Both the position numbers and the translations under genes were made by a program. A DNA stretch of 64,000 nt from Escherichia coli (GTDB taxonomy: Bacteria; Pseudomonadota; Gammaproteobacteria; Enterobacterales; Enterobacteriaceae), in the NCBI RefSeq assembly GCF_024223415.1, contig NZ_CP100500.1. One strand, given 5' to 3'. The first letter of the stretch is position 1. Every line of letters starts with the position of its first letter. Shown here piece after piece: positions 6,636-26,880 of the stretch. The notes under the pieces were generated by a model that saw nothing but the letters and a program-made list of their open reading frames with translations, was not told where the DNA came from and did no database searches.

Positions 6636-8291
6636 ATGGATCGTAGACGATTTATTAAAGGTTCAATGGCTATGGCCGCCGTGTGCGGTACCAGCGGCAT
6701 TGCTTCTCTTTTTTCTCAGGCGGCATTCGCGGCAGATTCTGATATTGCCGACGGACAAACCCAGCGTTTTGACTTCTCCATTCTACAGTCAATGGCGCAC
6801 GACTTAGCGCAAACAGCGTGGCGTGGTGCGCCTCGTCCGTTACCTGACACGCTGGCGACAATGACGCCGCAGGCTTATAACAGTATTCAATACGACGCCG
6901 AAAAATCGCTCTGGCATAACGTTGAGAACCGTCAACTGGACGCTCAGTTCTTCCATATGGGAATGGGATTCCGTCGCCGCGTTCGTATGTTTTCTGTAGA
7001 TCCAGCAACACATCTGGCGCGTGAAATTCACTTTCGCCCGGAGTTGTTCAAATACAACGATGCAGGTGTTGATACCAAACAATTAGAAGGGCAAAGCGAT
7101 CTCGGCTTTGCCGGTTTTCGCGTGTTTAAAGCCCCCGAACTGGCGCGACGTGATGTAGTATCATTCCTCGGAGCGAGTTATTTCCGCGCCGTTGATGACA
7201 CATATCAATACGGTTTGTCGGCCCGCGGCCTGGCGATTGACACTTACACCGACAGTAAAGAAGAGTTCCCCGACTTTACCGCCTTCTGGTTTGATACGGT
7301 AAAACCGGGGGCAACTACCTTTACCGTTTATGCGTTGCTCGATAGCGCCAGCATTACTGGTGCCTATAAGTTCACTATCCATTGTGAGAAAAGTCAGGTG
7401 ATTATGGATGTGGAAAATCACCTGTATGCGCGCAAAGACATTAAACAGCTGGGCATTGCGCCGATGACCAGTATGTTCAGCTGCGGTACTAATGAACGTC
7501 GGATGTGCGACACCATTCATCCGCAAATTCATGACTCTGATCGTCTGTCCATGTGGCGGGGCAACGGCGAGTGGATTTGCCGTCCGCTGAATAATCCGCA
7601 AAAATTGCAGTTCAATGCTTACACCGACAACAACCCGAAAGGGTTTGGTTTATTGCAACTGGATCGTGACTTCTCCCATTATCAGGACATTATGGGCTGG
7701 TATAACAAACGCCCAAGTCTGTGGGTGGAACCGCGTAACAAGTGGGGTAAGGGCACCATCGGCCTGATGGAAATCCCAACAACGGGCGAAACGCTGGATA
7801 ACATTGTCTGCTTCTGGCAGCCAGAAAAAGCTGTAAAAGCGGGTGATGAGTTTGCATTCCAGTATCGTCTGTACTGGAGTGCGCAACCGCCTGTTCATTG
7901 CCCATTAGCGCGCGTTATGGCGACGCGTACCGGCATGGGCGGTTTCCCGGAAGGTTGGGCGCCAGGTGAACACTATCCCGAAAAATGGGCGCGTCGTTTT
8001 GCCGTCGATTTCGTTGGTGGTGATCTGAAAGCTGCCGCACCAAAAGGCATTGAGCCGGTGATTACGCTTTCCAGTGGGGAAGCGAAGCAAATCGAAATTC
8101 TCTATATTGAACCCATTGATGGTTATCGTATTCAGTTTGACTGGTATCCGACATCGGACTCCACTGATCCGGTCGATATGCGGATGTATCTGCGTTGTCA
8201 GGGCGACGCTATCAGTGAAACATGGCTGTATCAGTATTTCCCGCCAGCGCCGGATAAACGTCAGTATGTTGACGACCGCGTGATGAGTTAA
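6636..8291 (+). CDS. opgD: osmoregulated periplasmic glucan biosynthesis protein D (Tat-exported)
   Basis: 551-aa ORF; twin-arginine signal [32 protein letters not shown]; OpgG/OpgD-family body. Confidence 0.95.
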
Positions 8292-23611: not shown

Positions 23612-25036
23612 ATGCAACATAAGTTACTGATTAACGGAGAACTGGTTAGCGGCGAAGGGGAAAAACAGCCTGTCTATAATCCGGCAACGGGGGACGTTTT
23701 ACTGGAGATTGCCGAGGCATCCGCAGAGCAGGTCGATGCTGCTGTGCGCGCGGCAGATGCAGCATTTGCCGAATGGGGGCAAACCACGCCGAAAGTGCGT
23801 GCGGAATGCCTGCTGAAACTGGCGGATGTTATCGAAGAAAATGGTCAGGTTTTTGCCGAACTGGAGTCCCGTAACTGTGGCAAACCGCTGCATAGTGCGT
23901 TCAATGATGAAATTCCGGCGATTGTCGATGTTTTTCGCTTTTTCGCTGGTGCGGCGCGCTGTCTGAATGGTCTGGCGGCAGGTGAATATCTTGAAGGTCA
24001 TACTTCGATGATCCGTCGCGATCCGTTGGGGGTCGTGGCTTCTATCGCACCGTGGAATTATCCGCTGATGATGGCCGCGTGGAAACTTGCTCCGGCGCTG
24101 GCGGCAGGGAACTGCGTAGTGCTTAAACCATCAGAAATTACCCCGCTGACCGCGTTGAAGTTGGCAGAGCTGGCGAAAGATATCTTCCCGGCAGGCGTGA
24201 TTAACGTACTGTTTGGCAGAGGCAAAACGGTGGGCGATCCGCTGACCGGTCATCCCAAAGTGCGGATGGTGTCGCTGACGGGCTCTATCGCCACCGGCGA
24301 GCACATCATCAGCCATACCGCGCCCTCCATTAAGCGTACTCATATGGAACTTGGTGGCAAAGCGCCAGTGATTGTTTTTGATGATGCGAATATTGAAGCA
24401 GTGGTCGAAGGTGTACGTACATTTGGCTATTACAATGCCGGACAGGATTGTACTGCGGCTTGTCGGATCTACGCGCAAAAAGGCATTTACGATACGCTGG
24501 TGGAAAAACTCGGTGCTGCAGTGGCAACGTTAAAATCTGGTGCGCCGGATGACGAGTCTACGGAGCTTGGACCTTTAAGCTCGCTGGCGCATCTCGAACG
24601 CGTCAGCAAGGCAGTAGAAGAGGCGAAAGCGACAGGGCATATCAAAGTGATCACCGGTGGTGAAAAGCGCAAGGGTAATGGCTATTACTATGCGCCGACG
24701 CTGCTGGCTGGCGCATTACAGGACGATGCCATCGTGCAAAAAGAGGTATTTGGTCCAGTAGTGAGTGTTACGCCCTTCGACAACGAAGAACAGGTGGTGA
24801 ACTGGGCGAATGACAGCCAGTACGGACTTGCATCTTCGGTATGGACGAAAGATGTGGGCAGGGCGCATCGCGTCAGCGCACGGCTGCAATATGGTTGTAC
24901 CTGGGTCAATACCCATTTCATGCTGGTAAGTGAAATGCCGCACGGTGGGCAGAAACTTTCTGGTTACGGCAAGGATATGTCACTTTATGGGCTGGAGGAT
25001 TACACCGTCGTCCGCCACGTCATGGTTAAACATTAA
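23612..25036 (+). CDS. patD: gamma-aminobutyraldehyde dehydrogenase
   Basis: 474-aa aldehyde dehydrogenase; catalytic motifs ELGGKAP and NAGQDCTA. Confidence 0.95.
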
Positions 25037-25422
25037 GGATAATATTGCAGATCGTAAGAGTATGAGAAGATCTTGCGTACTGTCAGAGAGTTGATTTCTC
25101 TGACAGTACGTGCTGCGTGCAAAATCACTACATCAAATAAACCAGCCAAATCTCATAGAGATAAGAGTAAACAAACCAACAGCAGCAAAGACATTTATCA
25201 GTACTACAGTTCTACTGGAAACATTCATTTTTGCCACCTTTTATCATTGCCCCTATGTGTATAGTACGGGTTAAGAAAATCCGCAATAATACTCATTCTG
25301 AAGATGGATAAGGGCAAGTTGCTGTTTGATGTTTTTTTCTCAAACCGGTTAAAAAACTTGATGCACGTCAAAAAATGACGCATATTTGCGCGCGTTTTAT
25401 TCATCTGGCTGGACGCCCGTAC

Positions 25423-25596
25423 ATGTCTCTCTATCAACACATGCTTGTTTTTTATGCGGTTATGGCAGCAATCGCATTTCTTATCACTTGGTTTCTTTCT
25501 CACGATAAGAAACGCATCCGTTTCTTAAGCGCCTTTCTGGTGGGGGCAACATGGCCGATGAGTTTCCCGGTGGCGCTGTTGTTTTCACTGTTTTAA
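25423..25596 (+). CDS. ortT: small membrane toxin OrtT (orphan toxin)
   Basis: ATG 25423 gives 57-aa hydrophobic peptide MSLYQHMLVFYAVMAAIAFLITWFLSHDKKRIRFLSAFLVGATWPMSFPVALLFSLF. Confidence 0.85.
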   Translation: MSLYQHMLVFYAVMAAIAFLITWFLSHDKKRIRFLSAFLVGATWPMSFPVALLFSLF

Positions 25597-25681
25597 ATCT
25601 TACTCACTGGCTTGACGGCACCACGCAGACTTATATCATTTGGATGAATCGATAAATTTCACAAGTGGCTAAGGAGAAAGT

Positions 25682-25915
25682 ATGTCGCATCTGGATGAAG
25701 TCATCGCGCGTGTGGATGCCGCGATTGAAGAGAGCGTCATTGCCCATATGAACGAATTATTAATCGCCCTGAGCGATGACGCGGAGTTAAGTCGGGAAGA
25801 TCGCTACACCCAGCAGCAGCGTTTGCGCACCGCTATTGCTCATCACGGTCGCAAGCATAAAGAAGATATGGAAGCGCGCCACGAACAGTTAACCAAAGGC
25901 GGCACCATCCTGTGA
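25682..25915 (+). CDS. ydcY: DUF2526 small protein
   Basis: 77-aa ORF; K-12 synteny. Confidence 0.8.
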   Translation: MSHLDEVIARVDAAIEESVIAHMNELLIALSDDAELSREDRYTQQQRLRTAIAHHGRKHKEDMEARHEQLTKGGTIL

Positions 25916-26365
25916 TTAAAATGAGCGTCTGGCCACCAACCAGGCGCCAACCACAAGTAAAATTGCGCCACAAATTGGGCCGAACAATGCCCGTAGTGGT
26001 ACGCCATGACTGCGGAAGATATCCAGCACCAGACCGCCAATCAGCTGGCTGGCGACCAGTACTGCAATAGTTGTCGCCGCTCCCACATTCTGATATCCGC
26101 TGATACTGGCAAAGACAAAAAACGATCCCAGCAAGCCGGGTATAAGTGTCCACCAGCGCACGCTGGACACCAGTTCGCCAAACCCCGCCATACCTTGTTT
26201 AAACCATAAAATAGAAACAAAGAGCACAATCCCCACCAGTGAGTTCAGCAACATGGCGATGAGAATGGTAGAGGAGGTCTGGGTGATGCGCACCATCAGC
26301 GTGTTCTGGACTACCAGACCAATTCCGGCGGCAATCAAAAAAGCAAGGGTGAGCGACTGATTCAT
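25916..26365 (-). CDS. ydcZ: inner membrane protein (DMT-like, 149 aa)
   Basis: Hydrophobic 149-aa minus ORF; overlaps mnaT stop. Confidence 0.85.
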   Translation of the reverse strand: MNQSLTLAFLIAAGIGLVVQNTLMVRITQTSSTILIAMLLNSLVGIVLFVSILWFKQGMAGFGELVSSVRWWTLIPGLLGSFFVFASISGYQNVGAATTIAVLVASQLIGGLVLDIFRSHGVPLRALFGPICGAILLVVGAWLVARRSF

Positions 26366-26880
26366 CCAATCGCGTCCGGTTCAGTGCGCTCGTCGAGTTG
26401 CAACTGCATAAATGTCAGATCCAGCCAACGACCAAATTTAGTGCCTACCTGCGGCATTTGTGCAGTGATGACAAATCCCAGCGACTGGTGGAGATGCAGC
26501 GAAGCCTGGTTTTGCGATTCGATCCCGGCGACCATGACATGCTTCCCGCAATCCCGCGCTTCATCAATCAATCGGCTTAACAATTTACGCCCCAGACCTT
26601 TGCCCTGATGATCGGGATGGACATAAACCGAATGTTCCACGGTATGGCGAAAACCATCGAAACTACGCCAGTCGCCAAACGAGGCATATCCCGTCACTAC
26701 GCCATCTTCTTCACTTACCAGCACCGGATAACCTGCTATGGTCCGCGCTTCAAACCAGGCAATGCGGTTATCTGCATCCACCGTTTGGTCATTCCAGATA
26801 GCCGCCGTATACAACACGGCGTGGTTATAAATTTCCGCAATGGCAACACAGTCGGCTTTGCGGGCAAAACGGATGGACAT
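26362..26880 (-). CDS. mnaT: L-amino acid N-acyltransferase (GNAT)
   Basis: Met at 26880 gives 172 aa (MSIRFARKADCVAIAEIYNH...); GNAT motif QGKGLGRKLL. Confidence 0.9.
   Translation of the reverse strand: MSIRFARKADCVAIAEIYNHAVLYTAAIWNDQTVDADNRIAWFEARTIAGYPVLVSEEDGVVTGYASFGDWRSFDGFRHTVEHSVYVHPDHQGKGLGRKLLSRLIDEARDCGKHVMVAGIESQNQASLHLHQSLGFVITAQMPQVGTKFGRWLDLTFMQLQLDERTEPDAIG

Follow-up and report, generated by a model that had tools for sequence, protein, structure and literature searches.

The window analyzed here is a stretch of 64,000 nucleotides from Escherichia coli (NCBI RefSeq assembly GCF_024223415.1, contig NZ_CP100500.1). Within it the genes patD and yncL converge on an intergenic region of 96 nt that contains a perfect palindrome (Table 1). 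The open reading frame of yncL, on the minus strand, has 31 codons and carries the sequence AGGTGG ahead of its start. RefSeq annotates identical DNA as yncL, coding for the "stress response membrane protein YncL", and its orthologues have a precomputed match to the Pfam family PF28073 (YncL). The first-pass annotation of this DNA overlooked this opposite-strand gene converging on the palindrome and assigned the latter to the plus-strand ydcSTUV-patD transcript. There is prior evidence that YncL is induced by stress and in stationary phase (PMC12542507). In Salmonella, the orthologue of yncL was shown to lie in STnc1110, a sigma-S-dependent transcript annotated as a small RNA (Lago et al., 2017; PMC5437024). 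This is the same gene, with a short sigma-S-dependent transcript of the same kind. Upstream of the E. coli gene we found the sequence CGTACTATAC (25258-25269, minus strand), conserved in Escherichia, Citrobacter and Klebsiella-like loci. The CTATACA motif within it is a candidate sigma-S-dependent -10 element of yncL, in agreement with the sigma-S dependence reported in Salmonella.

Table 1. Coordinates (window numbering) of the features discussed at the patD-yncL locus.
Feature	Position	Strand	Remarks
patD (gamma-aminobutyraldehyde dehydrogenase)	23612..25036	+	Convergent neighbour of yncL
Rho termination region, peak	24787..24787	-	K-12 position 1516753; antisense inside patD, about 286 nt downstream of the hairpin
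C-over-G stretch 3' of the hairpin, candidate Rho loading region	24976..25075	-	From base composition
Predicted mature yncL mRNA 3' end	25073..25073	-	3 nt past the stem, …CAGUACG-CAA; from Term-seq
yncL 3' UTR	25073..25132	-	60 nt; the hairpin starts 22 nt past the stop codon
U-less stem-loop	25076..25110	-	Perfect 14-bp stem, 7-nt loop; in yncL sense CGUACUGUCAGAGA-AAUCAAC-UCUCUGACAGUACG
yncL coding sequence	25133..25228	-	31 aa, MNVSSRTVVLINVFAAVGLFTLISMRFGWFI; stop included; from translation, RefSeq and Pfam
Candidate sigma-S-type extended -10 (CTATACA) of the yncL promoter	25258..25264	-	Inferred from conservation

The palindrome is formed by two arms of 14 nt, CGTACTGTCAGAGA (25076-25089) and TCTCTGACAGTACG (25097-25110), which are 100% complementary and separated by a spacer of 7 nt. 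The first-pass annotation had described it correctly as a perfect 14-bp inverted repeat some 40 bp after the patD stop, the precise gap between the end of the stop codon (25036) and the stem being 39 nt. The wider limits 25074-25112 correspond to the stem plus two flanking positions, where G.U pairing takes place in the plus-strand RNA only. No other perfect hairpin in the 64-kb window is as long, and in 100 first-order Markov shuffles a perfect stem of at least 14 bp never appeared, which bears out the previous impression that it is too perfect for chance. The reported lack of a U-run was equally confirmed. In the 8 nt past the stem there are 3 T on the plus strand (TGCTGCGT) and 2 T on the minus strand (CAAGATCT), a T-run is found at the palindrome on neither strand, and the site was not called by a consensus terminator scan. 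In the minus-strand sense the stem is preceded by UUUUGCACGCAGCA and followed by CAAGAUCU, with neither a uridine-rich tract nor an A tract.

The folding energy calculation that had been proposed as a check gave a clear result, since the predicted stability of the RNA was -26.7 kcal/mol for the plus strand (16 pairs, two of them G.U) and -23.6 kcal/mol for the minus strand, with z values of about -6 against shuffles. The value of the minus strand is that of the window allele; the K-12 allele of the yncL hairpin has a stem energy of -21.6 kcal/mol. The hairpin was also kept in the fold of the entire predicted yncL mRNA, the centroid included. A scan of the region 24000-26500 against Rfam 15 (E-value up to 10) gave no match at the palindrome and a single weak, unrelated sucA match inside patD. 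When the window was searched for further copies of the palindrome arms with up to 3 mismatches, these appeared at chance level and with no excess. The second-longest perfect hairpin of the window (61783-61811) has 11 bp, TAATTGCCGGG/CCCGGCAATTA; with TTTT after it on the plus strand, it resembles a usual intrinsic terminator.

A strong RNA 3' end has already been mapped at this site. (Adams et al., 2021; PMC7815308, supplementary file 1) analyzed E. coli K-12 by Term-seq and listed a minus-strand 3' end at position 1517039, with the flanking sequence …CGTACTGTCAGAGAAATCAGTGCTCTGACAGTACGCAA|GATC…. The average number of reads at this end was 75,264.6 in the LB OD 0.4 sheet and 536,300 in the second of the three sheets, which by caption order is LB OD 2.0 (PMC7815308). 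K-12 positions were converted to the window with an offset of 1,491,966, by which the patD end at 1517002 is 25036, the yncL stop at 1517099 is 25133 and the mapped end at 1517039 is 25073. We checked in NC_000913.3 that the stem ends at 1517042 and that the mapped end is located 3 nt beyond. This 3-nt tail differs from the U tail of 7-9 nt found at sgrS in the same table. The only label given to the end by Adams et al. was "antisense patD" (PMC7815308), because their "primary" class is limited to 50 nt of an ORF and the yncL stop is 60 nt away. The end was already in public data, where it is not linked to yncL, and what we have here is a strong, mislabelled published 3' end that can now be assigned to its gene. 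Other 3' ends of small genes in the Term-seq table may be mislabelled likewise. On the plus strand (patD), the list contains no 3' end at the site in any of the three conditions, LB OD 0.4, LB OD 2.0 and M63 (PMC7815308). The palindrome does coincide with a transcript 3' end, which was the comparison that the first-pass annotation had put forward. However, this end is that of the minus-strand gene yncL, and the assignment to the ydcSTUV-patD transcript was wrong. Its suggestions of an RNA stability stem-loop, or of a Rho-dependent or processing site, were of the right kind although attached to the wrong transcript. The assignment of the strand to yncL is based on synteny and on the Term-seq data.

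The palindrome is conserved among strains. The hairpin region (63 nt) was found as a single copy in 5411 of the 5426 complete E. coli genomes, with a median of 1 place per genome, and the search for the same palindrome elsewhere in the genome gave a negative answer. Variation among the E. coli alleles was confined to the loop (AATCAAC, AAATCAGTG, AAATAAGTG and ACTACCCAC), with the stem unchanged. The loop (25090-25096) is hypervariable, also in the loci L003, L004 and L105, and the window differs there from K-12 by three adjacent substitutions. In one E. coli lineage the loop is 2 nt longer, the spacer ranging from 7 to 9 nt. Beyond the species, we aligned 11 related sequences comprising E. 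coli alleles, a divergent Escherichia lineage, E. whittamii-type genomes, E. albertii and four Citrobacter. Among these 11 related sequences compensatory changes affecting both sides were apparent in 7 of the 16 stem pairs, 86.9% of the cells were paired (27-47% in slid controls) and the covariation score was 0.256, a value matched by 1 of 500 shuffles. G.U pairing was restricted to the yncL sense in 5 cells and to the patD sense in 9; covariation as such is blind to the strand.

Compensatory change also preserves the symmetry of the DNA, and the perfect dyad could be taken for the site of a dimeric regulator, or for a cruciform, controlling patD or yncL; a protein-binding palindrome was among the first proposals for this site. 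However, the palindrome is located at the 3' ends of both genes, away from their promoters. The half-sites vary freely while the pairing is kept, with four swaps in E. albertii and stems of unrelated sequence in Superficieibacter, in a related metagenome-assembled genome (L084) and in Klebsiella-like loci. The central spacer is variable in both sequence and length, and an RNA end maps exactly to the base of the palindrome. With this pattern the protein-binding proposal finds no support, and we consider a DNA site of either type extremely improbable.

The hairpin stays linked to yncL whatever adjoins it on the other side. The next gene beyond it is patD in the K-12 type and in the window, a CatB-related acetyltransferase carried by a 1.3-kb insert in 1159 of the 5426 E. 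coli genomes, an AraC-family gene in Citrobacter youngae and an HTH gene in a C. tructae-type genome. In E. albertii (L107/L108, 1734-2431) the next element is an IS1 located about 135 nt past the yncL stop, and the hairpin is kept there with four compensatory pair swaps. Altogether, patD is not the neighbour of the hairpin in 21% of the E. coli genomes, in Citrobacter or in E. albertii. The hairpin is found 3' of yncL also in those genomes (Citrobacter, E. albertii and others) where patD is 2 kb off or missing.

This distribution bears directly on the idea that the hairpin is a 3' stabiliser or terminator of the plus-strand ydcSTUV-patD mRNA, either exclusively or in addition to a role for yncL. 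Several features would fit such a role, i.e., the short distance from the patD stop to the stem, the better fold of the plus strand and the composition of this strand downstream of the hairpin, which is also C-rich and G-poor (C/G of 1.4-2.4 over about 180 nt). Besides, ExcludonFinder (PMC12288877) places patD-yncL in the core excludome of MG1655, a set of convergent pairs with an overlap of their transcripts in no fewer than half of the 58 RNA-seq samples, and coverage in the patD sense hence reaches the hairpin. Being listed as an overlapping convergent pair, the patD transcripts probably also contain it. Against the patD role stand the absence of plus-strand ends from the Term-seq list in its three conditions, the retention of the hairpin after yncL in genomes with patD distant or missing, and the 1.3-kb insert that parts patD from the hairpin in 1159 E. 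coli genomes. In these insert-bearing genomes a separate small hairpin, with a short T-run after it, is located directly past the patD stop. We regard a function for the patD transcript as unlikely.

The insert itself deserves a description. It is an AT-rich segment of 1.3 kb, coding for a CatB-related (hexapeptide-repeat) O-acetyltransferase, that is found between the patD stop and the hairpin (L001, 4687-6005). The segment is flanked by imperfect direct repeats, TAAACATTAAG and TAAATATTAAG, and the window (at about 25026-25043) has the short form; the repeats suggest a deletion or an insertion via microhomology. The sequence ATTAAGGATAAT (25032-25043, plus strand) overlaps the patD stop, and in Citrobacter a copy is located about 45 nt past the hairpin in the yncL sense (L008, about 6641-6652). 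Since the neighbour in Citrobacter is an AraC-family regulator and not patD, ATTAAGGATAAT is part of the sequence on the yncL side. We also considered an integron-like attC site at the insert. The GTTAAAC at the patD end fits the consensus GTTRRRY, but this is a common 7-mer and the candidate was dropped.

With such a presence/absence polymorphism directly adjoining, the palindrome might be thought to derive from a repeated or mobile element (an IS end, a MITE or a REP/BIME-like repeat), either as a copy or as what remains of one, which the indel may have left behind. REP elements are moreover known as exonuclease barriers at Rho-dependent 3' ends. Nevertheless, the hairpin is present both with and without the insert, it occupies one place per genome in the 5411 genomes, the window has no excess of near-copies, Rfam gave no match and the element is kept at the orthologous site across genera. 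The chances of this origin are, in our opinion, close to nil. What the hairpin does share with REP/BIME elements is the proposed function, namely blocking 3'-to-5' decay after distal Rho termination; it differs from them in lacking the REP consensus and in being single-copy, both in the window and across E. coli genomes.

We have also examined the yncL loci of other genera. A scan of genome contigs with PatD as query gave 80 loci, mostly from Pseudomonas, and yncL was within reach in only five of them (one E. coli, three Citrobacter and one Superficieibacter). A scan of metagenomes with the conserved pattern of the yncL promoter and ribosome-binding site recovered mostly Klebsiella-like loci, and one of E. 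coli. Every yncL orthologue examined had a stable hairpin (-15 to -27 kcal/mol) located 21-41 nt past the stop, in some cases with an unrelated sequence. Superficieibacter and the related metagenome-assembled genome (L084) have, at the same place, U-less hairpins unrelated in sequence and with C-rich sequence after them. In the Klebsiella-like loci (L085-L089, L092, L095, L099-L101) a canonical bidirectional intrinsic terminator, AAAAAAGCAGCC-loop-GGCTGCTTTTTT, is located about 22 nt past the stop, with loops that covary. Since the hairpins of the relatives are unrelated in sequence and the Klebsiella-like site is a canonical terminator, what is conserved is the position and the role, the 3' end of the yncL transcript, and not the sequence. 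The locus is a clear natural example of a single 3'-end function with two solutions among related bacteria, a U-less hairpin, probably with Rho, in Escherichia, Citrobacter and Superficieibacter, and a canonical intrinsic terminator in the Klebsiella-like genomes.

The involvement of Rho is indicated by published data. DirectRNA-seq with and without bicyclomycin (PMC7815308, supplementary file 2) detected a Rho termination region with its top position at 1516753 on the minus strand, with a Rho score of 16.6 and p = 5e-21. Without the inhibitor there were 220 reads upstream and 9 downstream, and with it 106 upstream and 72 downstream (PMC7815308). Actually, the downstream reads went from 4% to 68% of the upstream ones on bicyclomycin, figures that were obtained in 800-nt windows, so that the position is approximate and the extra reads are ascribed to yncL indirectly. 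Windows of this size would be compatible also with independent antisense transcripts suppressed by Rho; we infer, however, that the RNA on which Rho acts is read-through from yncL. The composition of the minus strand past the hairpin goes in the same direction, since the first 30 nt contain 9 C and 3 G, the first 100 nt contain 25 C and 17 G, and the C/G ratio is 1.2-1.85 over 400 nt, a mild excess considering that the 90th percentile of the window is 1.6. Also after the other orthologous U-less hairpins, in Escherichia, Citrobacter and Superficieibacter, C exceeds G (marginally in L084). Past the Klebsiella-like intrinsic terminator it does not.

A strong, sharp 3' end beside a very stable stem could also be produced by a Rho-independent terminator that lacks a U tract and releases the yncL transcript at the stem, and the intrinsic terminator that the Klebsiella-like orthologues have at the same place would be in line with it. 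Like a canonical intrinsic terminator, the E. coli element is a stable hairpin that is common to a convergent gene pair and determines the 3' end of an RNA. It differs, however, in having neither a U tract nor a flanking A tract, and in the Rho-sensitive read-through. Canonical terminators have a U run of about 7-9 nt with the end in or at the run, whereas here there are 2 T in 8 nt and the end is found 3 nt past the stem, not at the end of a long U tail as in sgrS. Bicyclomycin would not be expected to raise the downstream reads as it did under this explanation. Furthermore, (Dar and Sorek, 2018; PMC6061677) found in Rho-dependent transcripts precisely this kind of end, sharp at steady state and located directly after stable U-less stem-loops. 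Release at the stem itself therefore seems to us very unlikely.

The overlap of the convergent transcripts leads to yet another explanation, in which patD and yncL would form an excludon, their transcripts pairing at the hairpin into double-stranded RNA that is cut by RNase III, with mutual exclusion of both genes. Apart from the listing of the pair in the MG1655 core excludome, one report (PMC3082872) describes an altered abundance of the yncL mRNA in tiling arrays of RNase E or RNase III mutants, confirmed by northern blot. An excludon leaves unexplained, though, the selection for intramolecular pairing together with the free variation of the loop. In addition, the hairpin persists where the convergent partner is a different gene or an IS element, an ordinary terminator replaces it in Klebsiella-like genomes, and a stem of 14 bp is short as a substrate for RNase III. 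As the explanation of the palindrome we find the excludon highly improbable. An RNase III or excludon role could nonetheless coexist with the role at the 3' end of yncL.

Taking together the position and strength of the mapped end, the bicyclomycin-sensitive read-through downstream, the compensatory conservation of the stem and its constant linkage to yncL, we think it quite probable that the palindrome is the protective 3' stem-loop, acting as an exonuclease block, of a Rho-terminated, sigma-S-dependent yncL mRNA. The palindrome would be transcribed as the last structured element of a minus-strand mRNA of about 180 nt that encodes the 31-aa membrane protein. RNA polymerase would pass the hairpin, given that it has no U tract, and continue antisense into patD. 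Directly after the hairpin the RNA is untranslated, rich in C and poor in G; Rho would load there and terminate transcription over the next few hundred nt. Finally, 3'-to-5' exonucleases, which in the model already published are PNPase and RNase II, would trim the tail until blocked by the 13-14-bp stem, leaving a sharp and stable 3' end 3 nt past it, so that the hairpin would both define and protect the end of the yncL mRNA. The trimming of the yncL tail and the stabilising effect of the hairpin are proposed by analogy with other Rho-dependent transcripts.

Such transcripts were characterized by (Dar and Sorek, 2018; PMC6061677), who described a rut-like C-over-G sequence just downstream of the stem-loops and ends made by PNPase and RNase II, which degrade the RNA from diffuse, distal termination sites as far as the protective structure. 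The average expression of Rho-dependent genes was about 6-fold lower than that of the intrinsically terminated ones (PMC6061677). The yncL hairpin fits this class in its stable U-less stem, the sharp end, the effect of bicyclomycin and the matching C-over-G composition. In common with the class, it has neither a U-rich tail nor an upstream A tract, its end is sharp after the stem, and the read-through downstream is bicyclomycin-sensitive with a mild excess of C over G (in published reads counted in 800-nt windows). On the other hand, its stem is unusually long and perfect (13-14 bp) and is not a REP element, yncL is a very short and very abundant small-protein mRNA, and the dependence on exonucleases is here assumed by analogy. 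The hairpin is an instance of an already known class and does not change the understanding of termination. Its interest lies in the transcript model that it provides for yncL, with a candidate sigma-S-type promoter, an ORF of 31 codons and a 60-nt 3' UTR that would end in a protective hairpin.

A bolder version would have the same U-less palindrome working as an exonuclease stop in both directions, on each of the two convergent mRNAs (that of yncL and that of ydcSTUV-patD), a proposal that we hold as doubtful. If it were true, the mature transcripts would end in mutually complementary hairpins with an overlap of about 40 nt, and through this overlap an operon of polyamine catabolism would be linked to a small-protein gene under sigma-S, by transcriptional interference or by duplex-dependent decay.

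In the scanning of genomes, a palindrome described as "downstream of gene X" may be part of a small gene that has escaped annotation on the opposite strand. One more structure was found on the other side of yncL, between its promoter region and ortT. This is a GC-rich hairpin, ACGCATATTTGCGCGCGT (25378-25395), with T-runs on both sides. The K-12 Term-seq data include a weak "orphan" plus-strand end (848 reads) that corresponds to window position 25391, inside this hairpin and 32 nt before the ortT start. For the toxin gene ortT, the ACGCATATTTGCGCGCGT hairpin may act as an attenuator or be a site of processing.
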